DNA of 64,000 nt from Escherichia coli (GTDB lineage: Bacteria; Pseudomonadota; Gammaproteobacteria; Enterobacterales; Enterobacteriaceae). Location of the stretch: assembly GCF_045037415.1 (NCBI RefSeq), contig NZ_CP173438.1; one strand, 5' to 3'. The notes beneath the pieces are model-generated. The model was not told where the DNA came from and ran no database searches. It saw only the letters and a program-made list of their open reading frames with translations. Positions 1 through 20,653 of this stretch are shown here, piece by piece. The position numbers were made by a program, and so were the translations under genes. Position 1 is the stretch's first letter; each line of letters begins with the position of its first letter.

Positions 1-1741
1 CGGGTGTCGAAAGGCCGATATTCATCGCACCGACGATAGCGCCCGTTACCATAGATCCCAGCACAAACGAACCAATAACCCGCAGCGGATCTTCAATCGC
101 CATCGGGATCGCCCCTTCGGTGATACCTGCCAATCCTAACAGCCAGGTGGATTTCCCGGTTTCAATTTCAAACTCTTTAAACAGGCGCGGTGCGAGCATC
201 GTGGAAGCGGTTACGGTAAATGCCGAAACCATTTTGACGGAGGCGAAAATGGCATACGGGCCGTAAACGCCGTTCGCCATTGCCCCCAGACAGAATGCAT
301 AAGCGGCTTTGTTCACTGGCCCACCAAGGTCAAAGGAACACATAAAACCGAGAATGGCGCCCAACAACAGTGCGTTATTTCCTGACAGACCGTTCAGCCA
401 GGCGGTAAGCGAGTTATTGATCCATGCGACAGGTTCCCCTACTACAAACAGCATCAGACTACCCGCCCCCAACGTACCGAGCACCGGGTAGAGATAGAAA
501 GTCAGGAATCCGTTGAATTTACTGCTAAGACGTAGATGATTTTTCACCCAGCGCATCAGATAACCGGCTATCAATCCGCCAACGACCGCGCCGAGAAACC
601 CGGAACCAATCATGTTGGCGGCAAGCCCTGCCGCAAAGCCTGGCGCTAACGCCGGTTTATCAGCCAGTGAATAGGCGGTATAGGCTGCGAGCACCGGTAC
701 CATCAAAATCCCGAGCATCCCGCCGCCCAGCTTGCGGTACATCCACAACCAGGAGTTTTCTTCATTAAACAAATCTTGTAGCCCGAAGATTTGCGACAGT
801 AATACCGCGACCGCCAGCACCGTGCCACCCGCGACAATCAGCGGCACGGCGAAAGAGATCCCGCTCAACAGTGCCTGCTTCAGCTCCGTTTTGACACTTT
901 TCACCGGTTGCGTATCTTGCTGTACGGTACGCGTCTCATCGCTACGCTTGAGGGTAAGCGCTTGTTGAATCAACGCTTCTGCATGGCGAATCGGCTCGGC
1001 AACAGGCACAGAAAGCGCGGGAATGCCGTTAAAACGCTCGCTCTCCTTGATAGCGACTTCCGCCGCAAAAATACAGGCGGTTGCACTATTGAGTTGCTCC
1101 GCCGTTAAACGCTCTTCAATGCCGTTAGCACCTTGCTTTTCAACGTAGATATTCACGCCGAGTTTGCGTCCGGCTTTTTCCAGATATTCCGCAGCCATGT
1201 AGGTGTGAGCAATACCCGCCGGGCAGGCCGTTACGCAGACGATAGTTGGCGCATAAGAAAAAGAGGCAGTATGTTGCGCGTCCCCCTTGTCATCCAGCGC
1301 CGAGAGCAATTCATCGGGCGTCGTTGCCGACTGAATACGCGCCCTGAGCTCATCATCCGCCAGGCGCGTGGTCAGCGCGGTAAGCAGTTTCATATGCGTA
1401 GTACCTGCTTCATTGGGAGGAATGGCCAGCAATACCACTAAATCAACCGCTTCCGGGCCATCCACGCCTTCCCACTGAAGCGGCTCGCTGAGTGTGGCGA
1501 CCGCAAACGCCGCTTCTTTTACCGCAGCAGTTTTGCCATGCGGCACGGCCAGCCCTTCACCTAAGGCGGTCGGGCCGAGGCTTTCACGGCAATACACTTC
1601 TTCCAGAAATTGCTCAGTACTGGAAATTTTCCCCAGAGCAGCAAGACGTTGAGTCAACGCGTGGATGGCCTCTTCACGGCTGGTAAAGCGCACATTCAGA
1701 CACAGCGCATCGCGGTGGGTCAGAGTCGTCAGGTTCATCAT
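1..1741 (-). CDS. mngA: PTS 2-O-alpha-mannosyl-D-glycerate transporter EIIABC, partial (3' end lies beyond window start)
   Basis: Minus-strand frame open to the window edge; reverse complement of 1..60 reads VLGSMVTGAIVGAMNIGLSTP; tandem ATG ATG at about 1736-1741 gives N-terminus MMNLTTLTHRDAL; sits next to mngR. Not in ORF track because it runs off the edge. Confidence 0.8.
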   Translation of the reverse strand, partial: MMNLTTLTHRDALCLNVRFTSREEAIHALTQRLAALGKISSTEQFLEEVYCRESLGPTALGEGLAVPHGKTAAVKEAAFAVATLSEPLQWEGVDGPEAVDLVVLLAIPPNEAGTTHMKLLTALTTRLADDELRARIQSATTPDELLSALDDKGDAQHTASFSYAPTIVCVTACPAGIAHTYMAAEYLEKAGRKLGVNIYVEKQGANGIEERLTAEQLNSATACIFAAEVAIKESERFNGIPALSVPVAEPIRHAEALIQQALTLKRSDETRTVQQDTQPVKSVKTELKQALLSGISFAVPLIVAGGTVLAVAVLLSQIFGLQDLFNEENSWLWMYRKLGGGMLGILMVPVLAAYTAYSLADKPALAPGFAAGLAANMIGSGFLGAVVGGLIAGYLMRWVKNHLRLSSKFNGFLTFYLYPVLGTLGAGSLMLFVVGEPVAWINNSLTAWLNGLSGNNALLLGAILGFMCSFDLGGPVNKAAYAFCLGAMANGVYGPYAIFASVKMVSAFTVTASTMLAPRLFKEFEIETGKSTWLLGLAGITEGAIPMAIEDPLRVIGSFVLGSMVTGAIVGAMNIGLSTP

Positions 1742-1906
1742 GGTTCTCACTTGATCATTTTTATAGTCGCGCAAGTGTGCCTGATAAAACAATACATTTA
1801 CGTGATCACTTTCACTTACAAGATACTATTTGTATTAAATTTGTATTATTTACAAGATGAATTTATCGAGCATAATGGCTAAATTCGTATTAATGAGATA
1901 CTAGAA

Positions 1907-2629
1907 ATGGGACACAAACCCTTATACCGGCAGATTGCCGATCGCATTCGTGAGCAGATTACGTGCGGCGAGCTAAAACCTGGCGATGCGTTACCCACTG
2001 AATCGGCATTACAAACAGAGTTTGGCGTCAGCCGGGTTACGGTGCGCCAGGCTTTGCGCCAGTTAGTCGAGCAGCAGATCCTCGAAAGCATCCAGGGCAG
2101 CGGGACTTACGTCAAAGAAGAGCGGGTCAATTACGATATTTTTCAGTTAACCAGTTTTGATGAAAAACTGTCGGACCGTCACGTCGAAACACATAGTGAA
2201 GTCCTGATATTTGAAGTAATTCCGGCTGACAATTTTCTTCAGCAGCAGCTGCAAATTAGCGAGCAGGATCGTGTGTGGCATGTGAAGCGCGTGCGCTATC
2301 GCAAGCAAAAGCCGGTGGCGCTGGAAGAAACCTGGATGCCGCTTGCATTATTCCCGGATCTCACCTGGCAGGTCATGGAAAATTCGAAATATCACTTTAT
2401 TGAAGAAGTGAAGAAGATGGTTATCGATCGTAGCGAACAGGAGATAATTCCCCTGATGCCCACGGAAGAGATGAGCCGTCTGCTTAATATCAGCCAGACT
2501 AAGCCGATTCTTGAAAAAGTATCGCGTGGATATTTAGTTGATGGCCAGGTGTTTGAATATAGCCGCAACGCTTTTAATACTGATGACTATAAATTTACCC
2601 TGATAGCGCAGCGAAAATCGCCGCGATAA
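1907..2629 (+). CDS. mngR: GntR-family (HutC/UTRA type) transcriptional regulator of mannosyl-glycerate utilisation
   Basis: 240 aa ORF; N-terminal winged HTH (LPTESALQTEFGVSRVTVRQAL); position between mngA and sucD. Confidence 0.9.
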   Translation: MGHKPLYRQIADRIREQITCGELKPGDALPTESALQTEFGVSRVTVRQALRQLVEQQILESIQGSGTYVKEERVNYDIFQLTSFDEKLSDRHVETHSEVLIFEVIPADNFLQQQLQISEQDRVWHVKRVRYRKQKPVALEETWMPLALFPDLTWQVMENSKYHFIEEVKKMVIDRSEQEIIPLMPTEEMSRLLNISQTKPILEKVSRGYLVDGQVFEYSRNAFNTDDYKFTLIAQRKSPR

Positions 2630-2632
2630 GCA

Positions 2633-2656
2633 TAAAAAAGGCCATCATAAGATGGC
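2633..2656 (-). terminator. Intrinsic terminator of the sdh-suc operon
   Basis: GC hairpin followed by a T-run on the minus strand directly downstream of sucD. Confidence 0.5.
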
Positions 2657-2675
2657 CAACCATGTCGAAACCGAC

Positions 2676-2720
2676 AGCCCTTCGCCCTTCCTGTAGGGGG
2701 AAGCGGCGAGGGCTATTTCT
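2676..2720 (+). terminator. Putative mngR terminator hairpin
   Basis: Long imperfect palindrome agcccttcgcc...ggcgagggct followed by a T-rich stretch. Confidence 0.45.
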
Positions 2721-2732
2721 TATTACAGATAT

Positions 2733-3602
2733 TTATTTCAGAACAGTTTTCAGTGCTTCACCGATATCAGCCAGGCTGCGAACGGTTTTCACGCCTGCGG
2801 CTTCCAGAGCAGCGAATTTCTCATCCGCAGTACCTTTACCACCGGCAATGATGGCACCCGCGTGGCCCATACGTTTGCCTTTCGGCGCAGTCACACCAGC
2901 GATGTAACCCACAACTGGCTTGGTGACGTGCTCTTTGATGTACGCAGCCGCTTCTTCTTCAGCGCTACCGCCGATCTCACCGATCATCACGATCGCTTCA
3001 GTCTGCGGATCTTTTTCGAACATTTCGAGAATATCGATAAAGTTAGAGCCAGGGATCGGGTCGCCGCCGATACCAACACAGGTCGACTGACCGAAACCGT
3101 AATCCGTGGTCTGTTTAACCGCTTCATAGGTCAGCGTACCGGAACGGGAAACGATACCCACTTTACCTGGTTTGTGAATGTGACCCGGCTGGATACCGAT
3201 TTTGCATTCCCCCGGGGTGATAACGCCTGGGCAGTTCGGGCCGATCATACGAACGCCTGCTTCATCCAGTTTCACTTTCACCGTCAGCATATCCAGCGTC
3301 GGGATGCCTTCAGTGATGGTGATAATCAGTTTGATGCCTGCATCGATAGCTTCCAGAATGGAGTCTTTGCAGAACGGTGCTGGTACGTAGATAACAGAGG
3401 CGGTAGCGCCAGTGGCAGCAACAGCTTCACGCACGGTGTTAAACACCGGCAGGCCGAGGTGGGTAGTACCGCCTTTACCTGGGGTTACGCCGCCAACCAT
3501 TTTAGTGCCGTATGCAATGGCCTGTTCAGAGTGGAAAGTCCCCTGGCTACCAGTAAAGCCCTGGCAGATAACCTTGGTGTTTTTATCAATTAAAATGGAC
3601 AT
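2733..3602 (-). CDS. sucD: succinyl-CoA synthetase alpha subunit
   Basis: 289 aa; [25 protein letters not shown]-terminus; CoA-binding and His-phosphorylation motifs; start overlaps sucC stop. Confidence 0.97.
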
Positions 3603-4768
3603 TATTTCCCCTCCACTGCGGCAACAACCTGCTGAGCTGCATCCGTCAGACCTTTTGCTGCAATAATATTCAGGCCGCTGTCAGCCAGTTTCTTCGCACC
3701 GAGTTCGGCGTTGTTACCTTCCAGACGTACCACGACCGGTACGTTAACACCCACTTCTGCTACCGCGCCGATGATACCGTCAGCGATCAGGTCGCAACGA
3801 ACGATACCGCCGAAGATGTTAACCAGAACGGCTTTCACTTTGTCGTCAGAGAGGATGATTTTGAACGCTTCGGTTACACGTTCTTTGGTTGCGCCACCGC
3901 CAACGTCCAGGAAGTTAGCCGGTTCGCCGCCGTGCAGTTTAACGATGTCCATCGTACCCATCGCCAGACCTGCGCCGTTAACCATACAACCGATGTTACC
4001 GTCCAGCGCAACGTAGTTCAGTTCCCACTGTGCAGCCTGTGCTTCACGCGGATCTTCCTGCGACTGGTCACGCATTTCACGCAGATCAGGCTGGCGGAAC
4101 AGTGCGTTGCCATCAGCGCCCAGTTTGCCGTCGAGGCAAATCAGATCGCCCTGTTTGGTAATAACCAGCGGGTTGATTTCGATAAGCGCAAGGTCGCGCT
4201 CCAGGAAAATGGTCGCCAGGCCCATGAAGATTTTGGTGAACTGCTGAACCAGTTTACCTTCCAGACCCAGTTTAAACGCCAGCTCGCGTCCCTGATACGG
4301 CATCGGGCCAGTCAGCGGATCAAGCGCAACTTTGTGGATCAGGTGCGGAGTTTCTTCCGCCACTTTTTCGATTTCCACGCCGCCTTCGGTGGAGGCCATA
4401 AAGACCACGCGACGGGAACTACGGTCAACAACGGCACCGAGATACAGCTCTTTAGCGATATCGGTCGCTGCTTCAACCAGAATCTGGTTAACCGGTTGGC
4501 CATTGGCATCTGTTTGATACGTTACCAGACGCTTGCCCAGCCAGTTTTCTGCAAAAGCACGGATGTCTTCTTTGCTGTTTACAACTTTCACACCGCCCGC
4601 TTTACCGCGGCCACCAGCGTGAACCTGACATTTCACTACCCACGGACCGGCACCGATTTTTGAAGCGGCTTCTTCTGCTTCGCGTGGAGTAGTACAGGCA
4701 TAACCCACCGGTGCTGGTAAGCCATAGCGGGCAAAAAGTTGTTTTGCCTGATATTCATGTAAGTTCAT
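3602..4768 (-). CDS. sucC: succinyl-CoA synthetase beta subunit
   Basis: 388 aa; [19 protein letters not shown]-terminus (ATP-grasp). Confidence 0.97.
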
Positions 4769-4808
4769 GTGTTCTGTCCATCCTTCAGTAATCGTTATCT
4801 TTTAAACC

Positions 4809-4839
4809 GTAGACCGACCCCCTATCCACGTCGGTCTAC
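4809..4839. repeat. Inverted repeat / stem-loop in the sucB-sucC intergenic region
   Basis: gtagaccgac ... gtcggtctac, 10-bp arms, about 11-nt loop. Confidence 0.5.
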
Positions 4840-4861
4840 AGTGCAGGTGAAGCTTAAACTA

Positions 4862-6079
4862 CTACACGTCCAGCAGCAGACGCGTCGGATCTTCCAGCAA
4901 CTCTTTGATCGTTACCAGGAAGCCCACGGATTCGCGACCATCGATCAAACGGTGATCGTAGGACAGCGCCAGGTACATCATCGGCAGGATCTCAACCTGG
5001 CCATTCACCGCCATCGGACGATCTTTGATAGCGTGCATACCCAGAATTGCGCTCTGCGGCGGGTTGATGATAGGCGTAGACATCAGGGAACCGAACACAC
5101 CACCGTTGGTGATGGTAAAGTTACCACCAGTCAGATCTTCAACCGTCAGCTTGCCGTCACGGCCTTTAACTGCCAGCTCTTTAATTTTCTTCTCGATGTC
5201 TGCCATGCCGAGGGTATCGACATCACGCAGAACCGGCGTCACCAGGCCGCGCGGCGTAGAAACCGCCATACTGACGTCGAAATAGTTGTGGTAGACCACA
5301 TCATCGCCGTCGATAGACGCATTCACTTCCGGGTAACGTTTCAGGGCTTCAACCACCGCTTTCACGTAGAAGGACATAAAGCCCAGACGGATGCCGTGGC
5401 GTTTTTCAAACGCTTCACCGTACTGCTTACGCAGATCCATAATCGGCTTCATGTTGACTTCGTTGAACGTGGTCAGCATGGCGGTGGAGTTTTTCGCTTC
5501 CAGCAGACGCTCTGCCACACGCTTACGCAGGCGAGTCATCGGCACACGTTTTTCGCTACGTGCAGCCAGGGCCGGTTGCGCCGCCGGAGCAGCCGCTGCC
5601 GGAGCAGACTCTTTCGCCGGGGCTTTCGCCAGATGTTTTTCCACATCTTCACGGGTCAGACGACCACCCACACCCGTGCCTTTAATGGCGCTGGCGTCGA
5701 GGTTATGTTCAGCCAGCAGGCGACGGATCGCCGGGCTTAACGCATCGTTGTTTTGCTCTTCCAGAGACGCCTGCTGGCGTTGCGCCGGAGTGGACGCTTT
5801 CTCTTCAGATTTGGCGCTGGTTTCTTTACCGGCGCTGTTGCCTTCACGCAGGCGACCAAGGATCTGACGAGACGTTACGGTTGTACCTTCATCTTCCAGA
5901 ACCGCATCCAGAATGCCGTCTGCTGATGCCGGTACTTCCAGTACCACTTTGTCAGTTTCGATTTCTACCAGCACTTCATCACGTACGACTACGTCGCCGG
6001 GTTTTTTATGCCAGGTTGCGACGGTGGCATCGGCTACGGATTCAGGCAGGTCAGGGACCAGAATATCTACGCTACTCAT
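4862..6079 (-). CDS. sucB: 2-oxoglutarate dehydrogenase E2, dihydrolipoyllysine succinyltransferase
   Basis: 405 aa; lipoyl domain ([13 protein letters not shown]), Ala/Pro-rich linker, catalytic domain DHRLIDG. Confidence 0.97.
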
Positions 6080-6093
6080 TGTGTATCCTTTAT

Positions 6094-8895
6094 TTATTCG
6101 ACGTTCAGCGCGTCATTAACCAGATCTTGTTGCTGTTTCTGGTGAACGGACATATACCCTACCGCCGGAGAGGCGGAGGCCGGGCGGCCTGCATAACGCA
6201 GAGAAGCCCCAAACGGAATCACTTCACGGAAATGATGCTGGCTGCAGTACCATGCGCCCTGGTTGAGCGGCTCTTCCTGGCACCAGACAAAATCCTTGAC
6301 GTGAGCAAACTGCTGCAACACTTCCTGCATCGCTTTATGCGGGAACGGGTAGAGTTGCTCGATACGCACAATGGCGACATCGTGTTGATTGTTCTTACGA
6401 CGTTGTTCCAGCAGATCGTAATAAACCTTACCAGAACACATCACTACGCGCTTCACGCCCTTCGGATCAAGCTCGTCGATTTCACTGATGGCTGGCAGGA
6501 AGGTGCCGTTCGCCAGTTCTTCGAGGCTGGAAACCGCCAGCGGATGACGCAGCAGGGATTTCGGCGACATCACGACCAGTGGACGACGCATCCCGCGCAA
6601 CGCCTGACGACGCAGCATGTGGTAAACCTGTGCCGGGGTAGAAGGTACGCAAACCTGCATGTTTTGCTCAGCGCAAAGTTGCAGATAACGTTCCAGACGC
6701 GCGGAGGAGTGCTCCGGCCCCTGCCCTTCGTAACCGTGCGGCAGCAACATCACCAGGCCACACATCCGGCCCCATTTCTGTTCGCCAGAGGAGATGAACT
6801 GGTCGATAACCACCTGTGCACCGTTGGCGAAGTCACCGAACTGTGCTTCCCAGATGGTCAGGGTGCGTGGTTCTGCGGTGGCATAACCGTATTCAAACGC
6901 CAGTACGGCTTCTTCAGACAGTACAGAGTCCCAGACGCGGAACGCGCCCTGGCCGTTATGGATATGTTGCAGCGGCGTGTAAGTGGAACCGTTAGACTGG
7001 TTGTGGATCACCGCGTGGCGGTGGAAGAAGGTACCGCGACCGGAGTCTTCACCCGACAGGCGAACCGGAATGCCTTCGTCAACCAACGTGGCGTAAGCGA
7101 GGTTTTCCGCGCCGCCCCAGTCGAACAGTTTCTCACCGGCTGCCATCGCCTGGCGATCGCCATAAATTTTGGCAACGCGAGACTGCATTTCAACCGCTTC
7201 CGGCACCGTGCTGATGCGTTTAGCCAGTTCCTGCAGGCGCTTCATCTCAACTTTGTTCGGGTACTCTTCGTCCCATTCGTGGTTGAGGTACGGCGACCAG
7301 GTGAAAGAGTGCATGTTCATCGGACGCCACTCTGCTACAACGCAATCGCCAGCATCCAGCGCATCGCGGTACAGGTTAACCATCTCGGTGGCATCTTCCA
7401 GCGTCGCGACTTTTTCCTGCTCCAGCTTGTCAGCGTAGATTTTGCGCGGCGTCGGATGTTTTTTGATTTTCTGATACATCAGCGGCTGGGTTGCGCTCGG
7501 CTCGTCGGCTTCGTTGTGGCCGTGACGGCGGTAGCATACCAGGTCGATGAAGACATCACGTTTAAAGGTGTTACGGAAATCGAGCGCCAGACGGGTCACA
7601 AAGGCAACGGCTTCCGGATCATCCGCATTAACGTGGAAAATCGGTGCCTGAACCATCTTACCGATATCAGTACAGTACGGCGTCGAACGGGCATCCAGCG
7701 GGTTAGAGGTGGTGAAGCCAACCTGGTTGTTGATAACGATACGTACCGTACCGCCAACTTCATAACCACGCGCTTTCGACATGTTCAGGGTTTCCTGAAC
7801 TACGCCCTGCCCGGTCACTGCGGCGTCACCATGAATGGTGATTGGCAGCACTTTGTTGCTGCTCGGCTCATCAAGTCTGTCCAGACGGGCACGAACAGAA
7901 CCGATAACGACCGGGCTTACAATCTCAAGGTGAGACGGGTTAAACGCCAGCGCCAGGTGCACCAGGCCGCCATCGGTCTGGAAGTCAGACGAGAAGCCCA
8001 TGTGGTATTTCACGTCGCCCGTGCCGAGGTGTTCTTTATGTTTACCGGCAAACTCGTCGAACAAGTCTTGCGGTTTTTTACCCAGCACGTTCACCAGCAC
8101 GTTCAGACGACCACGGTGCGCCATCCCGAGAACCACTTCGCGGGTGCCGCTGTTGCCAGCGTGGCGGATCATCTCTTTAAGCATCGGGATTAACGCGTCA
8201 CCGCCTTCCAGCGAGAAGCGTTTTGCGCCAGGGAATTTTGCGCCAAGGTAACGTTCAAGGCCTTCAGCGGCGGTCAGTTCGCTTAAGAAGCGTTTTTTCT
8301 CTTCGCTATTGAAAGTCGCGCGACCAGACTCGATACGCTGTTGGATCCAGCGTTTTTCTTCGGTGCTGGTAATGTGCATATACTCGGCACCAATCGGGCC
8401 ACAGTAGGTTTGCTTGAGGGCTTCCAGCAGCTCGCCGAGTTTCATGGTTTCTTTGCCGCTGGCAAATGAACCGACGTTGAAGGTCTCCTGGAAGTCTGCT
8501 TCGGTCAGATCGTGGAAAGACGGATCCAGATCGGCCACTTTATCTTGCTGCCACAGTCCCAGCGGATCGAGATTCGCATGCTGGTGACCACGGAAGCGGT
8601 ATGCGTTAATGAGCTGCAGGACTTTAACCTGCTTCACATTGGTGTCAGGGTCGGAGATCGTTGAAGAGTAACGTGAAGCGTCTTTCGCCAGGCGGCGGAA
8701 ATATTCACGCGTTTGAGAGTGGAATTGATCCGGTTTGACTCCCGTACCAGGTAACTGCTGGAACGTCGAACGCCAGTTAGCGTCAACCGAGTCAGGATCG
8801 GTTAAGAAGTCTTCATAGAGCTGTTCTATCCAGCTCTGGTTTGCGCCAGAGAGGTAAGAAGAGTCCAACCAGGCTTTCAAAGCGCTGTTCTGCAT
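6094..8895 (-). CDS. sucA: 2-oxoglutarate dehydrogenase E1 component
   Basis: 933 aa; [32 protein letters not shown]-terminus. Confidence 0.97.
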
Positions 8896-9068
8896 CGTGA
8901 TCCCTTAAGCATCTTTTTTATGCTTACTTCGCCGTGGATACTACCACGCACATTTCATATCTGATGTGCGTGCCGGGGTTCACTTGTTGCGGACTTGTCG
9001 TGTTTTCTGCGTCCGCTAAGGAACCTTTAAAAACTGTCTTAGTGTCAGGGGCAGTTTTTAAAGATTTC

Positions 9069-9258
9069 CTGCATTTCTTTTGTAGGCCGGATAAGGCATT
9101 CACGCCGCATCCGGCGCTGTTTGCCTGATGCGACGCTTGCGCGTCTTATCAGGCCTACGGTTTCTGCATTTCTTTTGTAGGCCGGATAAGGCGTTCACGC
9201 CGCATCCGGCACTGGTTGCCTGATGCGACGCTTGTGCGTCTTATCAGGCCTACGGTTT
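9069..9258. repeat. Tandem duplication of a roughly 95-bp REP/BIME unit
   Basis: Two near-identical copies of ctgcatttcttttgtaggccggataaggc-ttcacgccgcatccggc...gcctgatgcgacgctt-gcgcgtcttatcaggcctacggttt, abutting the sdhB stop codon. Confidence 0.75.
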
Positions 9259-9973
9259 ACGCATTACGTTGCAACAACATCGACTTGATATGGCCGATGG
9301 CGCGCGTCGGGTTCAGCCCCTTCGGACATACACTGACGCAGTTCATGATGCTGTGACAGCGGAATACACTGAATGCATCGCTCAAACCGTCGAGGCGGCT
9401 GTCAGTCTCGGTATCACGGCTATCGATCAGGAAACGATATGCCGCTAACAAGCCTGCCGGACCGATAAACTTATCGGGATTCCACCAGAAAGACGGACAA
9501 GAGGTTGAACAACATGCGCAGAGAATACATTCATACAACCCGTCGAGTTTTTCGCGCTGCTCTGGCATCTGTAAATGCTCGCGAGCTGGCGGATTTTGTC
9601 CATTATTCAACAGGTAAGGCTTAATTTTCTCATATTGCGCATAGAATTGTCCCATGTCTACCACCAAATCGCGGATCACCGGTAAACCTGGCAGCGGACG
9701 AATCACAATCTTCTTGCCCGGCTGGTTGAGTGCCGAAATCGGGGTAATACAGGCCAGACCATTCTTACCGTTCATGTTCAGACCGTCGGAACCGCACACA
9801 CCTTCACGGCAGGAGCGGCGGAACGACAGGCTGGGATCTTTCTCTTTCAGCTGAATAAGCGCATCCAGCAGCATCATGTCGCGACCTTCTTCCGCTTCCA
9901 GGGTGTAATCCTGCATACGCGGAGCATCATCAACATCCGGGTTATAGCGATAAATTGAAAACTCGAGTCTCAT
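9257..9973 (-). CDS. sdhB: succinate dehydrogenase iron-sulfur subunit
   Basis: 238 aa; Cys clusters for 2Fe-2S, 4Fe-4S and 3Fe-4S. Confidence 0.97.
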   Translation of the reverse strand: MRLEFSIYRYNPDVDDAPRMQDYTLEAEEGRDMMLLDALIQLKEKDPSLSFRRSCREGVCGSDGLNMNGKNGLACITPISALNQPGKKIVIRPLPGLPVIRDLVVDMGQFYAQYEKIKPYLLNNGQNPPAREHLQMPEQREKLDGLYECILCACCSTSCPSFWWNPDKFIGPAGLLAAYRFLIDSRDTETDSRLDGLSDAFSVFRCHSIMNCVSVCPKGLNPTRAIGHIKSMLLQRNA

Positions 9974-9988
9974 TTTCCTGTCTCCGCA

Positions 9989-11755
9989 TTAGTAAGTACG
10001 AATCTTCGGCGGGAATGCCGGGCGCAGTTTCGGTTCCATGTTGACGCTTCGGCGCGTCATGGATTCCGACTCTGGCAGATACAGGGAGTGGCACAGCCAG
10101 TTTTCATCATCACGATCCGGGAAGTCGAAGCGGCTATGCGCGCCACGGCTTTCGGTACGGAAGTTGGCAGAAACAGCCGTTGCATACGCCGTTTCCATCA
10201 GGTTATCCAGTTCCAGGCACTCAACGCGCTGGGTGTTGAACTCGCTGGAAGTGTCATCCAGACGGGCATTTTTCAGACGCTCGCGGATAACTTTCAACTG
10301 CTCAAGCCCTTTCGCCATCGCATCACCTTCACGGAAGACCGAGAAGTTATGCTGCATACATTCTTGCAGTGCTTTACGGATCGCCACCGGATCTTCACCG
10401 TTACGGTTATTGTTCCAGCGGTTCAGGCGATCCAGAGACGCTTCTACATCAGACTCGCTGGCATCGCGCAGTGCGCCCTGCTCGGCGATAGACTCTTGCA
10501 GATGCAGACCTGCCGCACGACCAAATACCACCAGGTCCAGCAGCGAGTTGCCGCCCAGACGGTTAGCGCCGTGTACCGATACACAAGCGATTTCACCAAC
10601 GGCAAACAGCCCCGGAACAACCACATCTTCGCCTTTCTCATTCACCGTCAGCGCCTGACCGGTCACTTTGGTCGGAATACCGCCCATCATGTAGTGACAG
10701 GTTGGGATAACCGGAATCGGCTCTTTCACCGGATCGACGTGAGCGAAGGTACGGGAGAGTTCCAGAATACCCGGCAGACGGGATTCGAGAACTTCTTTCC
10801 CCAGATGGTCAAGTTTCAGTTTTGCGTGTGGCCCCCACGGACCATCACAGCCGCGACCTTCACGGATTTCGATCATGATGGAACGCGCCACCACGTCACG
10901 GCCCGCCAGGTCTTTGGCGTTCGGCGCATAACGCTCCATAAAGCGTTCGCCATGTTTGTTCAGCAGATAACCGCCTTCACCACGGCACCCTTCGGTGACC
11001 AGTACGCCCGCACCGGCAATACCGGTCGGGTGGAACTGCCACATTTCCATATCCTGCACCGGTACGCCTGCACGGATAGCCATGCCGACACCGTCGCCAG
11101 TGTTAATGTGGGCGTTGGTGGTGGACTGATAAATACGCCCTGCCCCGCCAGTCGCCAGCACTGTCGCGCGAGCTTTAAAGTAAACCACTTCACCAGTTTC
11201 GATGCACAGTGCGGTACAACCGACCACTGCGCCATCCTGGTTTTTCACCAGATCCAGCGCATACCACTCGGAGAAAATGGTGGTGTGGTTTTTCAGGTTC
11301 TGCTGATAAAGCGTGTGCAACAGTGCGTGACCGGTACGGTCAGCTGCCGCCGCAGTACGTGCCGCCTGCTCGCCGCCGAAGTTTTTCGACTGACCGCCAA
11401 ACGGACGTTGATAGATACGACCATCATCAAGACGCGAGAACGGCAGGCCCATATGTTCCAGTTCCAGAATCGCTTCCGGCCCGGTTTTACACATATATTC
11501 AATCGCGTCCTGGTCACCGATATAGTCCGACCCTTTTACGGTGTCGTACATATGCCATTCCCAGTTATCTTCATGGGTATTACCCAGCGCAACGGTAATA
11601 CCACCTTGCGCAGAAACGGTATGGGAACGGGTCGGGAAGACCTTAGAGAGCAGCGCACAGGTCTGGCCACTCTGGGAAATTTGCAGCGCCGCGCGCATAC
11701 CTGCGCCGCCAGCACCAATCACAACTGCATCAAATTCTCTGACTGGCAATTTCAT
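9989..11755 (-). CDS. sdhA: succinate dehydrogenase flavoprotein subunit
   Basis: ORF-track frame 9989..11767; start placed at internal Met ([22 protein letters not shown]) where it overlaps the sdhD stop. Confidence 0.95.
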
Positions 11756-12102
11756 CACACACCCCACACCACAACGAATCCATAAATCACGTAAACCACC
11801 AGTGCAACGACAATCACCAGTTGCAGCATCAGGCGCAAGGCCAGCGGTTTAACGTAGTCGGTCAACACCTGCCACATGCCGATCCAGGCATGGATCAAGA
11901 TAGAAAACAGCGCCAGCAGGGTGAACACTTTGGTGAACGCAGAGGCGAAGAAACCAATCCAGACTTCATATGTCAGCTCGCCACTGGTAGCGAAAAAACC
12001 GACCATATAAATGATGTAGAGCGTCAGGACGATAGCGGTAGCACGAACGAGGATGAAATCATGTACGCCATTGCGTCCTAATGCGGAGGCGTTGCTTACC
12101 AT
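11755..12102 (-). CDS. sdhD: succinate dehydrogenase membrane anchor subunit
   Basis: 115 aa hydrophobic protein in the sdhCDAB operon. Confidence 0.95.
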
Positions 12103-12485
12103 ACGAGGACTCCTGCGAGAAGTGAAAGCACGACAGTAATAACAAAGGAGATTTTGGCGGAGCGTTTACCCGCTTCGAATGTTTCTTCCAGATAGCCAAA
12201 ATCCATCATCATGTGGCGAATACCTACGACGACGTGATATGCCAGAGCGGTAAGGATGCCCCACATGATAAATTTGACGAAGAAGCTGCCCATAATCGCG
12301 GAAGCTTGCTCGAAACCTTCAGGGGAAGAGAGGCTGGTACCCAGAAGCCACAGCAGGATGCCCACTGCAACAAAGGTGATCACACCGGAAACGCGATGGA
12401 GAATGGACGCTATCGCCGTGACGGGGAACCGGATGGTCTGTAGGTCCAGATTAACAGGTCTTTGTTTTTTCACATTTCTTATCAT
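12096..12485 (-). CDS. sdhC: succinate dehydrogenase cytochrome b556 subunit
   Basis: ORF-track frame 12096..12500; start placed at [15 protein letters not shown]. Confidence 0.9.
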
Positions 12486-12500
12486 GAATAACGCCCACAT

Positions 12501-13193
12501 GCTGTTCTTATTATTCCCTGGGGACTACGGGCACAGAGGTTAACTTTCTGTTACCAGGAGACGTCGGGATTTCCTTCCTCCGGTCTGCTTGCGGGTCAGA
12601 CAGCGTCCTTTCTATAACTGCGCGTCATGCAAAACACTGCTTCCAGATGCGAAAACGACACGTTACAACGCTGGGTGGCTCGGGATTGCAGGGTGTTCCG
12701 GAGACCTGGCGGCAGTATAGGCTGTTCACAAAATCATTACAATTAACCTACATATAGTTTGTCGGGTTTTATCCCGAACAGTGATCTGCGTCACGATAAC
12801 AACATTTATTTAATTTTTAATCATCTAATTTGACAATCATTCAACAAAGTTGTTACAAACATTACTAGGAAAAGCATATAATGCGTAAAAGTTATGAAGT
12901 CGGTATTTCACCTAAGATTAACTTATGTAACAGTGTGGAAGTATTGACCAATTCATTCGGGACAGTTATTAGTGGTAGACAAGTTTAATAATTCGGATTG
13001 CTAAGTACTTGATTCGCCATTTATTCGTCATCAATAGATCCTTTACCTGCAAGCGCCCAGAGCTCTGTACCCAGGTTTTCCCCTCTTTCACAGAGCGGCG
13101 AGCCAAATAACAAACGGGTAAAGCCAGGTTGATGTGCGAAGGCAAATTTAAGTTCCGGCAGTCTTACGCAATAAGGCGCTAAGGAGACCTTAA
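12501..13193. promoter_or_regulatory. Divergent sdhC / gltA promoter-regulatory region
   Basis: About 690-bp AT-rich non-coding spacer between divergent sdhC and gltA; individual binding sites not mapped here. Confidence 0.7.
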
Positions 13194-14477
13194 ATGGCTG
13201 ATACAAAAGCAAAACTCACCCTCAACGGGGACACAGCTGTTGAACTGGATGTGCTGAAAGGCACGCTGGGTCAAGATGTTATTGATATCCGTACTCTCGG
13301 TTCAAAAGGTGTGTTCACCTTTGACCCAGGCTTCACTTCAACCGCATCCTGCGAATCTAAAATTACTTTTATTGATGGTGATGAAGGTATTTTGCTGCAC
13401 CGCGGTTTCCCGATCGATCAGCTGGCGACCGATTCTAACTACCTGGAAGTTTGTTACATCCTGCTGAATGGTGAAAAACCGACTCAGGAACAGTATGACG
13501 AATTTAAAACTACGGTGACCCGTCATACCATGATCCACGAGCAGATTACCCGTCTGTTCCATGCTTTCCGTCGCGACTCGCATCCAATGGCAGTCATGTG
13601 TGGTATTACCGGCGCGCTGGCAGCGTTCTATCACGACTCGCTGGATGTTAACAATCCTCGTCATCGTGAAATTGCCGCGTTCCGCCTGCTGTCAAAAATG
13701 CCGACCATGGCCGCGATGTGTTACAAGTATTCCATTGGTCAGCCATTTGTTTACCCGCGCAACGATCTCTCCTACGCCGGTAACTTCCTGAATATGATGT
13801 TCTCCACACCGTGCGAACCGTATGAAGTTAATCCGATTCTGGAACGTGCTATGGACCGTATTCTGATCCTGCACGCTGACCATGAACAGAACGCCTCCAC
13901 CTCCACCGTGCGTACCGCTGGCTCTTCGGGTGCGAACCCGTTTGCCTGTATCGCAGCAGGTATTGCTTCACTGTGGGGACCTGCGCACGGTGGTGCTAAC
14001 GAAGCGGCGCTGAAAATGCTGGAAGAAATCAGCTCCGTTAAACACATTCCGGAATTTGTTCGTCGTGCGAAAGACAAAAATGATTCTTTCCGCCTGATGG
14101 GCTTCGGTCATCGCGTGTACAAAAACTACGACCCGCGCGCCACCGTAATGCGTGAAACCTGCCATGAAGTGCTGAAAGAGCTGGGCACCAAAGATGACCT
14201 GCTGGAAGTGGCTATGGAGCTGGAAAACATCGCGCTGAACGACCCGTACTTTATCGAGAAAAAACTGTACCCGAACGTCGATTTCTACTCTGGTATCATC
14301 CTGAAAGCGATGGGTATTCCGTCTTCTATGTTCACCGTGATCTTCGCTATGGCACGTACGGTTGGCTGGATCGCCCACTGGAGCGAAATGCACAGTGACG
14401 GTATGAAGATTGCCCGTCCGCGTCAGCTGTATACCGGCTACGCGCAGCGTGATTTTAAGTCGGATATTAAGAAGTAA
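13194..14477 (+). CDS. gltA: citrate synthase
   Basis: 427 aa; [22 protein letters not shown]-terminus; GFGHRVY active-site motif. Confidence 0.97.
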
Positions 14478-14492
14478 AAATGACACCGACAA

Positions 14493-14521
14493 AACCCTGC
14501 GTGGACACGCAGGGTTTTTAA
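14493..14521. terminator. Bidirectional intrinsic terminator between gltA and the TRAP operon
   Basis: aaaa-ccctgcgtg-gac-acgcaggg-tttttt: perfect hairpin flanked by A-run and T-run. Confidence 0.75.
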
Positions 14522-14523
14522 TT

Positions 14524-15834
14524 CTACACCAGCAGCAAAGATATTGCCGGAATATAGGTAATGACCAACAGAAGTAAAATAAGACTGATCAGTAATGGCA
14601 CCGCTTCACGCATAAATTGCCCGACAGAAACCTGTACGGTATTACATACCAGCAGCATCACCGTTCCGACAGGTGGTGATAACGTTCCTAACGATAAGTT
14701 GAGGATCATAATGATGCCAAAATGCACCGGATCAATGCCAAAATGAGCCACCACGGGTTTAAGTAATGGGACTAATATCAGCAGAATGGCACTACCTTCA
14801 AGGAACATGCCAAGCACCAGCAGCAATAGATTGATAATCAATAAAAAGACGTATTTATTATCGGTCAGAGAAGTTACAAACTCCGCAACCGTGATACCTG
14901 CCCGCTCAAGGGAAAATATCCAGCCCAGCGCGGCACTCGCCATAATGATTAACATGACCGATGCCGTGGAACGCGCCGTCTCAGAGAGTGCTGTAAATAC
15001 ATGGCTGATTTTCAGTTCGCGATAAATTACAAAACCAATAAACATTACCAATAATACTGCTACCGCTCCGGCTTCCGTTGGCGTAAAGATATTTGCCCGA
15101 ATACCACCGATAACCGCAACAATTAAGAACAGTGCTGGCCAGGCCTGCACCAGCGCCACTGACACTTCTTTCGGTTTTGGCCAGTGTTCGCTGGAAGGTT
15201 TTAAACCGCGACGAATAGCCACCAACCATACGGTAACGATCAACATGGCGGAGCACAGCAGACCTGGCAGGATCCCGGCCATAAACATGGAGCCGATGGA
15301 GACATCCGCCACCAGTCCGTAAAGGATCAGTGCAATACCCGGTGGAATAATTGGTGTAATCAGCGAACCACTTGCCGTTATCGCCGCCGCAAAGCCACGG
15401 GAATAACCTTTCTGTTCCATTTCCGGCACCATCATGCGCGATAACATTGCGGCATCCGCCAGATTTGAGGCACTGACACCGCCCATCATGGTACTGACCA
15501 GAATATTAGCCCCACCCAGGCCACCGCGCATTCTGCCAATCAACACGTTGGCAATTTGCAAAATACGCGCGGCAATACCGGTATAGCTCATTAACGTGCC
15601 TAATAAGATAAAAAACGGAATAGCTAACAGCGAAGGGGTTTGCGTCGTGGCAATCAAACGCTGAATTGCCACCATTAACGGCACATTTGAATAGCAAAGG
15701 AAGTAGGTCAGAATGCCGCAAAACATCGCCAGCCATACCGGCATATTGATAAATAAACAGACGAACATAAGCGGAATGATCATCAGCCAGTTATCCAGCC
15801 AGCTTCCCGCCAGTAATTCACTCAATGCTGTCAT
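14524..15834 (-). CDS. TRAP transporter large permease subunit (DctM family)
   Basis: 436 aa polytopic membrane protein; stop/start overlap with the upstream small permease. Confidence 0.85.
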   Translation of the reverse strand: MTALSELLAGSWLDNWLMIIPLMFVCLFINMPVWLAMFCGILTYFLCYSNVPLMVAIQRLIATTQTPSLLAIPFFILLGTLMSYTGIAARILQIANVLIGRMRGGLGGANILVSTMMGGVSASNLADAAMLSRMMVPEMEQKGYSRGFAAAITASGSLITPIIPPGIALILYGLVADVSIGSMFMAGILPGLLCSAMLIVTVWLVAIRRGLKPSSEHWPKPKEVSVALVQAWPALFLIVAVIGGIRANIFTPTEAGAVAVLLVMFIGFVIYRELKISHVFTALSETARSTASVMLIIMASAALGWIFSLERAGITVAEFVTSLTDNKYVFLLIINLLLLVLGMFLEGSAILLILVPLLKPVVAHFGIDPVHFGIIMILNLSLGTLSPPVGTVMLLVCNTVQVSVGQFMREAVPLLISLILLLLVITYIPAISLLLV

Positions 15835-16295
15835 TATTCACCTTCTTTGCGTGGCGTTTTCTTGATCAGTTGTAAGGCAGTAAAACAGGCGACACCGATA
15901 GCGCCAACCGTGACGGCAATATCGATCCAAAACCAGGATATTTTTAATATTTGCGTGGTTTTAAAGGCTGTCCCGGCAGCTAATTTCCATGCTGACCAGG
16001 CCATGACCACCAGCAAAATAATAGACATCAGAGAGACTAAAAACGCTAATATACGTTGCCCGCGTGAAGTAAGTGCATCGGCTAAAAATGGAATCGATAA
16101 ATGGGTATTATCTCGTTCAGCAACAACCGCACCAAACATGACTACCCAAATCATTAATAAACCGGAAACCTCTTCTGTCCACTGTAATGGCATATGAAAA
16201 CAGTAACGCATTATTACCGCAGCAATGGTCATGATTACCAATATAAAGAGCGTTAATACCGCAGCAACTTCAATCATTTTCCCTAAAAGACGCAT
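15834..16295 (-). CDS. TRAP transporter small permease subunit (DctQ family)
   Basis: ORF-track frame 15834..16331; start placed at ATG 16295 (MRLLGKMIEVAAVL, GAGG Shine-Dalgarno); alternative upstream start at 16331. Confidence 0.7.
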   Translation of the reverse strand: MRLLGKMIEVAAVLTLFILVIMTIAAVIMRYCFHMPLQWTEEVSGLLMIWVVMFGAVVAERDNTHLSIPFLADALTSRGQRILAFLVSLMSIILLVVMAWSAWKLAAGTAFKTTQILKISWFWIDIAVTVGAIGVACFTALQLIKKTPRKEGE

Positions 16296-16354
16296 AAACA
16301 CCTCTGCTCTTAACGGTCGGTGCCGAAACACCGACCAGTCCTTATGCCATGAAG

Positions 16355-17323
16355 TTATTTCAGCTGTTGCTGAATAGTGTCATACAAACCAGGGGTCCAT
16401 TCCGGGAATTGTTGATAGACTTTTAAGGCTTTTTCTTTGAAAGGGGCGACGTCAGGATAGATGATTTCCACGCCCTGCTCCTGCATGGTTTTCAACATTG
16501 TCGCATCCTGCTCAGTGGTAATTTTCTGGCTATATAAACCAGCTTCATACGCTGTCTGGTGAATAATATCTAACTGCGCAGGTGTCAGGGTACTGAAAAA
16601 CGCTTCGCCACCCAACCATAATGATGTATTGGTCAGATAGTTCACCATTGACAGATATTTCGCCTGCTCATGCAGCTTTTGCCCATAGAGAACAGAAACC
16701 GGGTTTTCCACACCATCGATCATCCCCTGAGTCAGCGCCGGATAAACATCTCCCAGCGGCATTGGTGTTGGGGTTGCGCCCATCGCTTCGATAGCTTTAA
16801 TCTGCATGACGTTATTCGGCACGCGGATCTTCATCCCTTTCAAGTCTTCAGGTGTACGAATCGGTTTTTTAGCAATGATCTGCCTGGTACCGTACAGATA
16901 GTTGCTCATGACAATATGCACACCTTTTTCCCGTAGTTTCTGTTCTTTTTGTTTAAACCAGTCACTGGCATAAATCGCAAACAGTTTCTGCGGATCTTCG
17001 GTTAAATAAGGCCCAAACAATATTCCCAAGTCTGCATCGTAGTCAGTTAAAAATCCTACATCACTGATGGTGATAATATTCATCCCCATCAACGCTTGTT
17101 CAGTAATATCTTGTTTAGAACCTAACTGTGAACTTGGGTAAAGTTCGAAAACAATATCTCCATTGCTTTTTTTCTTCACAAGTTCTGCCCAGTGCTTCAC
17201 TACTGTATCCGCTGGCTCGCCGGGGTTACTTTCATAGGCGATTTTGATAGTTACCGGTGCGGCATTCAGCATCGGACTAAATAAAGCTAAAAGAAATAAA
17301 AGTGGTGTCAGTAATTTTTTCAT
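16355..17323 (-). CDS. TRAP transporter substrate-binding protein (DctP family)
   Basis: 322 aa; signal peptide MKKLLTPLLFLLALFSPMLNAAPV; periplasmic binding-protein fold. Confidence 0.85.
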   Translation of the reverse strand: MKKLLTPLLFLLALFSPMLNAAPVTIKIAYESNPGEPADTVVKHWAELVKKKSNGDIVFELYPSSQLGSKQDITEQALMGMNIITISDVGFLTDYDADLGILFGPYLTEDPQKLFAIYASDWFKQKEQKLREKGVHIVMSNYLYGTRQIIAKKPIRTPEDLKGMKIRVPNNVMQIKAIEAMGATPTPMPLGDVYPALTQGMIDGVENPVSVLYGQKLHEQAKYLSMVNYLTNTSLWLGGEAFFSTLTPAQLDIIHQTAYEAGLYSQKITTEQDATMLKTMQEQGVEIIYPDVAPFKEKALKVYQQFPEWTPGLYDTIQQQLK

Positions 17324-17350
17324 TATTATTACCTGTAAGAGCTTTATCGA

Positions 17351-18547
17351 TTAACGGGGATCTGCCCGACAGACTGCACTTTTGCTGTAATCAAATGCTT
17401 TATACGTTAAAACAAACTCCTGATGTTCCAGTCGTTCTGCGGCACAATATTGACCGTTGGCGACATGTTCAATCACCTGCATAATATCGTCTGCAATATC
17501 GTCGAGCGTTGCGCCTTCGCTAATTACACGACCGGCATTAACGTCCATATCGTCAGATAAATGCTCCCACGTCTGCGGGTTATTACACACTTTAATAATA
17601 GGAGCGATCACTGAACCAATAACTGAACCGCGACCTGTGGTAAATAACACCATATGACAGCCAGAGGCGATAAGTTCCAGTGCTTCTGAGGAATCGTTAA
17701 TATTCGGATACCCAAAACGAGGTTCACCATCAGGCACCACGTCCATCAACCAAAGCCCAGGAAAGGGCGTTTGTTGCGTCGGCAAAATAACGCCAGCAAT
17801 CAGCGCATCGCCCGACTTGGTATAAGCCCCAAGGGATTTTTCTTCCTGAGTGGTTAAGCCGCCTTCAGCATTACCGTTAGAAAAACTCCCCAGCCCCATC
17901 AAACTGTAATAACGTTCGGCTTTTGTCATTGCCACTTCGATGGCATCACGTGCCTGCGAACTAGCCGCGCGCGACATCATATGCTGCTCACAACCAAGCA
18001 ACTCACCGCTTTCTTCAAAAATACAGGTAGCCCCTTTCTCCAGCAGTTGGTCAAAGGCACGTCCTACTGCCGGGTTACCCGTGATACCACTGGTGCCATC
18101 GGAGCCACCGCAGATAGTACCAACCACCAGGTCGCTCCAGTTCAGGATACAACGCGGTGTATCCGCAAGCTGTTCCAGCATTTCAGCGACCAACTGCTTA
18201 CCCAGAGTAATGGTGTTGGTCGTGCCTTTATTTTCCTGAATGACCAGCGTATGGCACGGTCGCCCACTTTCTCGTACTTCTTGCTCCAGCCGACGGCGAT
18301 CGAAATTCTCGCACCCCAGCGAAATAATCAGTACACCACCTACGTTGCTATGAGTCGCCAGATTTTTCACCAGCCGATAGCCATAATCGCTGGGATAACA
18401 ACCTGAAAAACCAAAATACTGCACGTCGTGACAAGGAAATCCTTCGGCAATCTTTTTAGCGACATGGCTGGCACACTCCACCATAAAGATTACCTGCACA
18501 GTATTACGAATACCTGGTCGACCATTTTGCCGTACATAACCTTCCAT
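17351..18547 (-). CDS. UxaA-family sugar-acid dehydratase, large subunit
   Basis: 398 aa resembling the C-terminal domain of altronate/galactarate dehydratases; 1-nt stop/start overlap with the SAF-domain partner. Confidence 0.8.
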   Translation of the reverse strand: MEGYVRQNGRPGIRNTVQVIFMVECASHVAKKIAEGFPCHDVQYFGFSGCYPSDYGYRLVKNLATHSNVGGVLIISLGCENFDRRRLEQEVRESGRPCHTLVIQENKGTTNTITLGKQLVAEMLEQLADTPRCILNWSDLVVGTICGGSDGTSGITGNPAVGRAFDQLLEKGATCIFEESGELLGCEQHMMSRAASSQARDAIEVAMTKAERYYSLMGLGSFSNGNAEGGLTTQEEKSLGAYTKSGDALIAGVILPTQQTPFPGLWLMDVVPDGEPRFGYPNINDSSEALELIASGCHMVLFTTGRGSVIGSVIAPIIKVCNNPQTWEHLSDDMDVNAGRVISEGATLDDIADDIMQVIEHVANGQYCAAERLEHQEFVLTYKAFDYSKSAVCRADPR

Positions 18548-18855
18548 TATGCTTTTTCCTCTGACTGATAGCCGGCATCATCATGATGAAAAATGGCGAT
18601 GGCATTGCTGGCAAGATTATGGGAATGCACATGTTCACCCATGGCAATATCGCGAGTGGCGTGTCCGATAATGGCGCCGTATTTCAGAATCGAATCACCA
18701 TTGTTCAGCGCTTCGCAGGCCAGTTTGTGCCCCAGGGTAACGGAACTACAGGCCACCATTTCCCCCTCATCCCACCAGACAATATCGCCACTGGCGATGT
18801 CATTCAGCGCGACTACACAGTTATCTTTGGCATGTAGCTTTAACGCACGTTTGCG
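18547..18855 (-). CDS. UxaA-family dehydratase small subunit (SAF domain)
   Basis: ORF-track frame extends to 18963 and would overlap the SDR gene; start placed at internal Met (MRKRALKLHAKDNCVVAL). Confidence 0.65.
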   Translation of the reverse strand, partial: RKRALKLHAKDNCVVALNDIASGDIVWWDEGEMVACSSVTLGHKLACEALNNGDSILKYGAIIGHATRDIAMGEHVHSHNLASNAIAIFHHDDAGYQSEEKA

Positions 18856-18872
18856 CATAATTCCTCCGTACA

Positions 18873-19628
18873 TCAGAAGCCGATCAATGCGCCGCCATCC
18901 ACCACCAGCACCTGACCACTGACAAACGCCGCTGCGTCTGAAGCCAGATAAACCGCAGCCCAACCGATATCCTCCGGCTTGCCGAATTTTTTCATCGGGG
19001 TACGACCCAGGATTTTGTTACGGCGTTCGTCATCACCTTCAATGGCCTTACGCAACATTGGTGTATCGATCCAGCCTGGCGCAATACCATTGACGCGAAT
19101 CCCATGAACGGCAAGCTCCGTGGTCATACCGCGAATCATGCCGAGATAGGCTGACTTCGCTGCGCTGTAGCCAGTAACCAGAGGCTGCCCAAGAAATGAG
19201 GTCATCGATGCAGTAAAAAGCACACAGCCTTTACCGCGTTGTTTCATATGCGGCACCAGCGCTTTGGTTAACGCAAATGCGCCGACTACGTGAACGTCGA
19301 GTACTGACTCAAAATCACTGACGCTCATCTCTTCAATCGGTTTTTTGCAGTGATTGCCTGCGTTATTGACCAGGATATCGATAGCCCCGTGTTCGCTAAT
19401 AAGCACATCAACTTTTTCCTGCGCGGCTGCGGTATCCCCGACATCCATTTGTATCCAACTGGCCTGCGACCCCAATGTTCCGGCGGTCGCTTGCGCCAGC
19501 TCGCCGTTCAGGTCAGCAATAATGACCTTCGCCCCGCTGACTATCATGCATTTCGCCATTGCCAGCCCCAGCCCACTGGCTGCACCGGTGATCAACGCGG
19601 TTTTGTTATGTAAAGAAAAAGCATTCAT
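18873..19628 (-). CDS. SDR-family NAD(P)-dependent oxidoreductase
   Basis: 251 aa; TGAASGLGLA Rossmann motif, YSAAK catalytic motif. Confidence 0.85.
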   Translation of the reverse strand: MNAFSLHNKTALITGAASGLGLAMAKCMIVSGAKVIIADLNGELAQATAGTLGSQASWIQMDVGDTAAAQEKVDVLISEHGAIDILVNNAGNHCKKPIEEMSVSDFESVLDVHVVGAFALTKALVPHMKQRGKGCVLFTASMTSFLGQPLVTGYSAAKSAYLGMIRGMTTELAVHGIRVNGIAPGWIDTPMLRKAIEGDDERRNKILGRTPMKKFGKPEDIGWAAVYLASDAAAFVSGQVLVVDGGALIGF

Positions 19629-19639
19629 GGTGTCGCTCC

Positions 19640-20653
19640 TTAAAGGTCAATGAGGATTTTGGTATACGCGCCGGGATCACTTGCCCAGTCGCTAAAAGCG
19701 TGATCAGCCTGTTCCAGCGGGTAGTGAGCACTCACCAGATTGCTGACCGGATAACGCCCGGACTCCATCAATGCCAGCACGGCACGAAAATCCGCCACGG
19801 TGGCATTGCGCGAACCACGGATATCCAGTTCTTTCATCAGGAACTGCGCACTCTGATAACTCACTGGCTGTTTGGCGTAACCGACATAAACCACACGACC
19901 GCTAAACGCCACCAACCCTGTAGCCTGTTCAATGGTTTGTTGATTACCCACCGCTTCAATCACCACTTCCGGGCCGCGACCGTCATTTAACAGCACCAGT
20001 TCTGCCGCCACGTCACATTGCTGCGAATTAAGAAAACGTTGCGCACCGCATTCCAGGGCAATGTTCCGCTTGCGATCATCAATATCGATAGCAATTACGC
20101 GCGCCCCCATGGCGGATGCCGCGGCGATAGCGCCAAGGCCAATTACCCCACAACCGATAACTGCGACCCATTCACCCACATTAATTTGCGCACGTCTGGC
20201 CGCATGTAGTCCCACGGCCAGCGGTTCTACCAGCGCTAACTCATCAACACTTAAGGCATTACAGACAATGACTTTATGTGCAGGCATCGTCAGTTGTTGC
20301 GCCATCCCCCCCTGACGTTGCACACCAAGAGTTTGGTTGTTTTTACAGGCGTTAGGACGACCGCTCAGACAGGAGCTGCACACGCCACACTCAGTGCAAG
20401 GCAGAACGACCACCCGGTCACCTGGCTTGATCGCCCCTGCCATATCGCCAGTTGCCAGCACCGTGCCGCCAATTTCATGCCCCGGAATACAGGGATAATT
20501 AACCAGCGGATTTAGTCCCCGCCAGGTATTGAGGTCAGAACCACACAGTCCGACACGCTCAACATTGATTAGCACTTCTCCTTTACCGCAGACAGGTTCG
20601 GGGATATCAACAAATCGCGCCTGACTTCCCTGCTCAATGGTTAATGCCTTCAT
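19640..20653 (-). CDS. Zn-dependent medium-chain alcohol/polyol dehydrogenase
   Basis: 337 aa; catalytic zinc motif (GHEIGG), structural-zinc Cys cluster (CTECGVCSSC), GCGVIGLG NAD motif. Confidence 0.85.
   Translation of the reverse strand: MKALTIEQGSQARFVDIPEPVCGKGEVLINVERVGLCGSDLNTWRGLNPLVNYPCIPGHEIGGTVLATGDMAGAIKPGDRVVVLPCTECGVCSSCLSGRPNACKNNQTLGVQRQGGMAQQLTMPAHKVIVCNALSVDELALVEPLAVGLHAARRAQINVGEWVAVIGCGVIGLGAIAAASAMGARVIAIDIDDRKRNIALECGAQRFLNSQQCDVAAELVLLNDGRGPEVVIEAVGNQQTIEQATGLVAFSGRVVYVGYAKQPVSYQSAQFLMKELDIRGSRNATVADFRAVLALMESGRYPVSNLVSAHYPLEQADHAFSDWASDPGAYTKILIDL

Follow-up and report, generated by a model that had tools for sequence, protein, structure and literature searches.

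[quoted passage not shown] Window positions 2732..2632 aligned without gaps to sdhX of K-12 MG1655, where the gene is annotated in the RefSeq record directly after sucD as the ncRNA 'small regulatory RNA SdhX' (b4764; NC_000913.3 765050-765150), with 97 of 101 positions identical. The four differences are U36C, U46G, G83U and G100A, where position p after the sucD stop corresponds to window coordinate 2733-p. The original prediction of a candidate SdhX at the 3′ end of sucD was therefore borne out, and its span of 2633-2732 was right to within 1 nt of the MG1655 annotation (2632-2732). It had proposed an alignment to the published sequence as a check, with the seed region as the critical part; there, the published seed UUCGACAUGGU (PMC6393394) was 100% identical, as were positions 47-82. 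sdhX is an ordinary, already described feature at this place, and the finding is that a correct annotation has been confirmed. The only aspect that goes beyond the searchable literature is the effect that U36C and U46G may have on the target katG.

The RNA lies at the end of a complete operon, which runs contiguously on the minus strand from sdhC, with its outer border at 12500, to sucD. The latter encodes 289 aa and ends with a TAA stop codon at 2735..2733 (-), so that the SdhX region begins at 2732. From the sucD stop, it is 99 nt to the end of the U tract and 103 intergenic bases to the stop of the convergent gene mngR. The features discussed below are as follows.

2733..12500, minus strand: sdhCDAB-sucABCD transcription unit, from the open reading frames and from the RefSeq annotation of a genome that matches window 1-20000 at 100% identity
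12096-12500, minus strand: sdhC, with sdhD and sdhA next in the operon
9257-9973, minus strand: sdhB
6094-8895, minus strand: sucA
4862-6079, minus strand: sucB/odhB
3602-4768, minus strand: sucC
2733-3602, minus strand: sucD
2632..2732, minus strand: full-length SdhX, equal to the whole sucD 3′UTR (101 nt), from the alignment to b4764
2676..2714, minus strand: 5′ hairpin of the long form (positions 19-57), variable and Escherichia-specific, from MFE folds
2691..2704, minus strand: segment complementary to the katG Shine-Dalgarno sequence (positions 29-42), from duplex calculations and the published pairing including C34 (PMC6393394)
2668..2672, minus strand: probable RNase E site GG/UUU (positions 61-65), proposed from a sequence that is the same as in K-12
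2659..2669, minus strand: conserved seed UUCGACAUGGU (positions 64-74), an exact match to the published seed (PMC6393394)
2634..2657, minus strand: Rho-independent terminator, a 7-bp stem with a 4-nt loop (2657..2640) and U6 (2639..2634)
1907..2629, plus strand: convergent neighbour mngR, with its stop codon at 2627-2629

Among the records examined, sdhX was annotated only in MG1655, and PGAP-annotated genomes omit it. A search of 2600-2750 with Rfam 15 returned no family at E≤1 or at the gathering thresholds; as no Rfam model matches the SdhX RNA, this silence is not evidence against SdhX.

The 11-mer seed is present as a single exact copy in the 64-kb window and lies single-stranded directly 5′ of the terminator. 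The strong minus-strand terminator that had been predicted beyond the sucD stop was also found, as a GC-rich hairpin (GGCCAUC-UUAU-GAUGGCC) followed by the six U residues. It was the sole terminator-like site in 1800-3700, a count that by itself carries no statistical weight (1 site in a simple scan versus 1.8 expected in shuffled sequences). Folding z-scores were -4.75 for the 101-nt RNA and -4.55 for its 44-nt 3′ module. In Hfq-dependent sRNAs, the terminator and its U tail form the 3′ Hfq-binding module. By analogy, the SdhX terminator, which ends the operon, is predicted to serve as such a module. A small open reading frame starting at the AUG of the seed (MVGHLMMAFF...) was rejected as a candidate: it runs through the terminator and is differently truncated in genomes without mngR.

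For expression, processing and Hfq binding, the functional picture of the window's SdhX is carried over from K-12 and Salmonella and should be read as an analogy. SdhX has no transcription start site (TSS) of its own; RNase E frees a long form and a form of ~38 nt from the ~10-kb operon mRNA, and SdhX is lost in an rne-ts strain (PMC6393394). The processing site of SdhX2 has been placed at a UUU stretch and at G62 of E. coli (PMC6393394). Judged by the identical sequence in the window, RNase E probably cuts at GG/UUU here as well, giving a short form of ~38 nt at about 2671..2634. The ~10-kb sdhCDAB-sucABCD mRNA would accordingly yield SdhX species of ~101 nt and ~38 nt with no promoter of their own. 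One could instead picture SdhX as a MicL-like sRNA that is transcribed independently from a promoter within sucD and does not arise by processing. SucD and SdhX levels are indeed discordant (PMC6393394), and the minus strand of sucD holds two weak sigma-70-like matches, at 3528..3499 and 3178..3151. However, promoter-like matches occurred at chance frequency (4 versus 2.4 ± 1.6 expected) and lie 420-800 nt 5′ of the RNA, and both the missing TSS and the loss of SdhX in the rne-ts strain contradict an own promoter. We regard such a gene as extremely improbable and continue to read SdhX as a product of mRNA processing.

Published work has established SdhX as an Hfq-associated RNA (PMC6393394; CLASH data in PMC7213987) that represses ackA translation by base pairing, as demonstrated by compensatory mutations in E. 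coli and Salmonella (PMC6393394); a further review covers its mechanism (PMC9438474). [quoted passage not shown] In silico, the seed of the window formed a 10-bp duplex with ackA from -3 to +7 (CCAUGUCGAG, the AUG plus the second codon UCG; -15.7 kcal/mol) and a duplex with fdoG around -26 to -11, 5′ of the start codon (-16.5 kcal/mol), both as in K-12. The E. coli-type G62 that takes part in fdoG pairing is present. Furthermore, ackA from -40 to +20 was invariant in 5416 of 5424 E. coli records, among them SK1144, whose SdhX region is identical to that of the window. Together with Hfq, SdhX of E. coli would lower translation of ackA while sparing pta, lower fdoG through G62, and lower katG through the 5′ hairpin region. 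Repression of ackA would link acetate and acetyl-phosphate metabolism to how strongly the TCA-cycle operon is expressed, and it is this coupling to acetate kinase that SdhX, a textbook 3′UTR-derived sRNA, would provide.

Within E. coli, a 241-nt query around the SdhX region found matches in 5425 of 5426 complete genomes. The 36-mer spanning positions 47-82, which runs from the hairpin base through G62 and the seed to the 5′ arm of the terminator stem, was exact in 5365 E. coli records. The seed module is therefore essentially fixed in the species, whereas the katG arm is polymorphic.

To look beyond the species, we scanned one genome per species for a pattern made of the seed and a U tract, which matched at least 120 loci. 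Among the matches listed, 97 had no sucD by tblastn and were mostly chance matches in unrelated phyla; this number includes Citrobacter youngae (L037), whose match lies at the extreme end of the locus. At least 23 loci (L013-L126) are located directly 3′ of a sucD homologue and carry the same seed ahead of a terminator, the seed being 32-83 nt past the start of the sucD stop codon. Among the matches listed, the sucD-linked ones came from Citrobacter, Enterobacter, Kluyvera, Pluralibacter, Phytobacter, Mangrovibacter, Siccibacter, Superficieibacter and Pseudocitrobacter, a record labelled Klebsiella oxytoca, E. albertii and E. coli; the same matches held no Salmonella and no K. pneumoniae, and the taxonomic range is incomplete. 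In an alignment of 15 sequences (window, K-12 and 13 cross-genus loci), UUUCGACAUGGUUG was invariant and the flanks diverged. The terminator stem was 100% paired in 15 enterobacterial sequences, and three of its seven pairs covary (A-U/G-C, C-G/U-A and C-G/U-A). Because the loci were fetched with the seed itself, they give no unbiased estimate of seed conservation, but the taxonomic spread, the unchanging place behind sucD and the independent covariation of the terminator stem still show. A covariance model built from the non-Escherichia sequences for scoring the window was discarded as circular, the sequences having been fetched with the window's own seed. The cross-genus pattern agrees with Figure 1A of PMC6393394.

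A stable hairpin between stop codon and seed was present in every sucD 3′UTR examined (at least 23), with an MFE of -10 to -27 kcal/mol and z-scores of -1.9 to -5.4. It comes in at least three unrelated sequence types: Enterobacter, Pluralibacter and Kluyvera have GCUCCCC...GGGGAGC, Citrobacter has CAGCCCUGAC...GUCAAGGGCUG, and Escherichia has AGCCCUCGCC...GGCGAAGGGCU. The structure is thus kept without conservation of the sequence. The hairpin of E. albertii differs from that of E. coli by a compensatory C28U/G47A pair and keeps U36 and U46.

The region could also be thought to act in cis only, as a 3′UTR with an intrinsic terminator that serves termination and protection of the sucD mRNA 3′ end and has no trans role at this locus. 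[quoted passage not shown] Yet the stretch of 11-17 nt that separates hairpin from terminator does not vary across genera and is complementary to the ackA start region, and the compensatory mutations in E. coli and Salmonella show regulation in trans (PMC6393394). We consider a cis-only region highly improbable. A trans-acting SdhX does not preclude an additional role of the same 3′UTR in cis.

On the other side of SdhX, the mngR stop codon is ~2-3 nt from the 3′ end of the sRNA, both in the window and by the MG1655 annotation, which means that any mngR 3′UTR would be antisense to SdhX. The plus strand at 2676-2725 contains the reverse complement of the SdhX 5′ hairpin (-27.9 kcal/mol) followed by the terminator-like UAUUUCUUAUU. 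The idea that the SdhX terminator works in both directions and also serves mngR was rejected, since its plus-strand copy lacks a U tract; transcripts of mngR would consequently cross the whole SdhX seed and terminator in antisense before ending, and their 3′UTR would be complementary to SdhX over its full length. A literature search found no paper naming both mngR and SdhX. With the mngR stop only ~3 nt away and a plus-strand hairpin leading into a terminator-like sequence, the main selected function of the region might be that of an mngR 3′UTR or terminator, the SdhX-like sequence being incidental. This is contradicted by the ~28% of E. coli genomes in which mngR is missing here but all 101 nt of SdhX, hairpin included, are retained, by E. 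albertii and other genera that keep the seed and terminator next to different neighbours, and by the lack of a U tract after the SdhX terminator hairpin when it is read on the plus strand. There is next to no probability that the plus strand accounts for the region, and we retain the assignment of the conserved elements to SdhX on the minus strand.

In the genomes without mngR (~1545 of 5426, ~28%), homology to the window breaks off precisely where the SdhX terminator ends, 101-106 nt past the sucD stop. The junction corresponds to window positions 2627-2632 and, in the two comparison loci, to 9219-9230 (L006) and 9219-9225 (L007). In strain Ch1, mngR-mngA is replaced by a LysR regulator and a methylaspartate/mesaconate-pathway cluster with an IS200/IS605 transposase, and in strain N62 by a TPR protein with cydAB immediately behind it. 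The SdhX terminator thus marks the edge of a hotspot of variable content that lies between sucD and cydA.

With four substitutions relative to K-12, two of which fall in the published target-pairing segment, the regulon of the window's SdhX may differ from that of K-12. G83U, in the terminator loop, and G100A, past the U tract, should be of no consequence. U36C (2697) and U46G (2687) both lie inside the 5′ hairpin. U46G replaces a G29.U46 wobble and a C30 bulge with a C30-G46 pair, which takes the MFE from -41.3 kcal/mol in K-12 to -44.5 kcal/mol in the window, a gain of ~3 kcal/mol. U36C is located in the hairpin loop and within the stretch (positions 29-42) through which K-12 SdhX forms a duplex of 14 contiguous bp with katG (-28.2 kcal/mol). 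The window RNA did not reach this K-12-type 14-bp pairing: its duplex was interrupted by an internal A.C mismatch at position 36, leaving 6 + 7 bp and -23.4 kcal/mol. For comparison, the published loss-of-function mutation C34G was computed at -23.8 kcal/mol, near the value of the window allele. Opening positions 29-42 costs 7.9 kcal/mol in the window and 6.3 kcal/mol in K-12. The change that would compensate U36C is a katG A-to-G exchange opposite position 36, that is, GUAGAGGGG to GUAGGGGGG. As katG from -50 to +10 was identical in 5419 of 5425 records, no such compensating change has occurred. Given both the mismatch and the firmer hairpin, these calculations suggest that the window allele probably represses katG less strongly and should act on ackA and fdoG as in K-12.

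The first 60 nt of the window allele were found exactly in 697 E. coli records (~13%) and those of the K-12 allele in 4256 (~79%), other alleles accounting for ~460 records. An O25b:H4-ST131 isolate has the exact window allele and the same mngR neighbour, and the cerebrospinal fluid (CSF) isolate N62 has the exact allele next to a different neighbour. E. albertii and E. coli E69 carry U36, U46 and U83; C36 and G46 therefore appear to be derived in the lineage of the window, and G83 on the K-12 side. That lineages with U36C/U46G have lost or weakened SdhX control of katG (catalase HPI) in the cell, while keeping control of ackA and fdoG, is a tentative proposal to which we give somewhat less than even odds. 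If true, it would be a natural and recent case in which targets are rewired through the 'evolutionary playground' region of a 3′UTR-derived sRNA, and the SdhX regulon would not be uniform within E. coli. The allele survey is of small added value in itself; it bears on the speed at which accessory sRNA targets turn over within a species.

Several observations concern other parts of the window. Two REP/BIME-type palindromic units at 9085-9155 and 9180-9250, between sdhB and sucA, gave the only Rfam hits; they match the family naRNA4 (RF02564) with 79.6 and 86.8 bits on the plus strand and more weakly on the minus strand. Both lie where the sdh-suc operon is known to have an internal terminator/promoter region. 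Between sdhC and gltA, the RefSeq genome that is identical over window 1-20000 has an annotated 35-aa hypothetical protein at 12881-12988 (+). Directly beside gltA, the minus strand at 14524-20000 carries three genes of a TRAP C4-dicarboxylate transporter and genes for a split UxaA-family hydrolase, an SDR oxidoreductase and a zinc alcohol dehydrogenase. Many genomes match window 1-20000 at 100% identity, and only 658 genomes covered it to ≥80% in one place, which suggests that the 14524-20000 cluster is an accessory block common to the lineage of the window.

Compared with known systems, the RNA is closest to SdhX of K-12 MG1655 (b4764), with which it shares the locus, the length of 101 nt, the seed, G62, the terminator stem, the U tract and the predicted ackA and fdoG duplexes; it differs by two substitutions in the 5′ hairpin (U36C, U46G), one in the terminator loop (G83U) and one past the U tract (G100A). 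Salmonella SdhX1 (87 nt) and SdhX2 (38 nt) resemble it in operon position, seed, terminator architecture and the ackA target (PMC6393394). In contrast, Salmonella SdhX has a U at the place of E. coli G62, and hence no fdoG regulation, lacks the katG-pairing 5′ region and targets fumB and yfbV (PMC6393394), whereas the window's SdhX has both the E. coli-type G62 and the E. coli-type 5′ hairpin. More distantly, CpxQ, SroC, NarS, MalH and GlnZ follow the same plan, with a seed just 5′ of the parental Rho-independent terminator and release by RNase E (PMC9438474), but they derive from other parental genes, have other seeds and targets, and are unrelated to SdhX in sequence.
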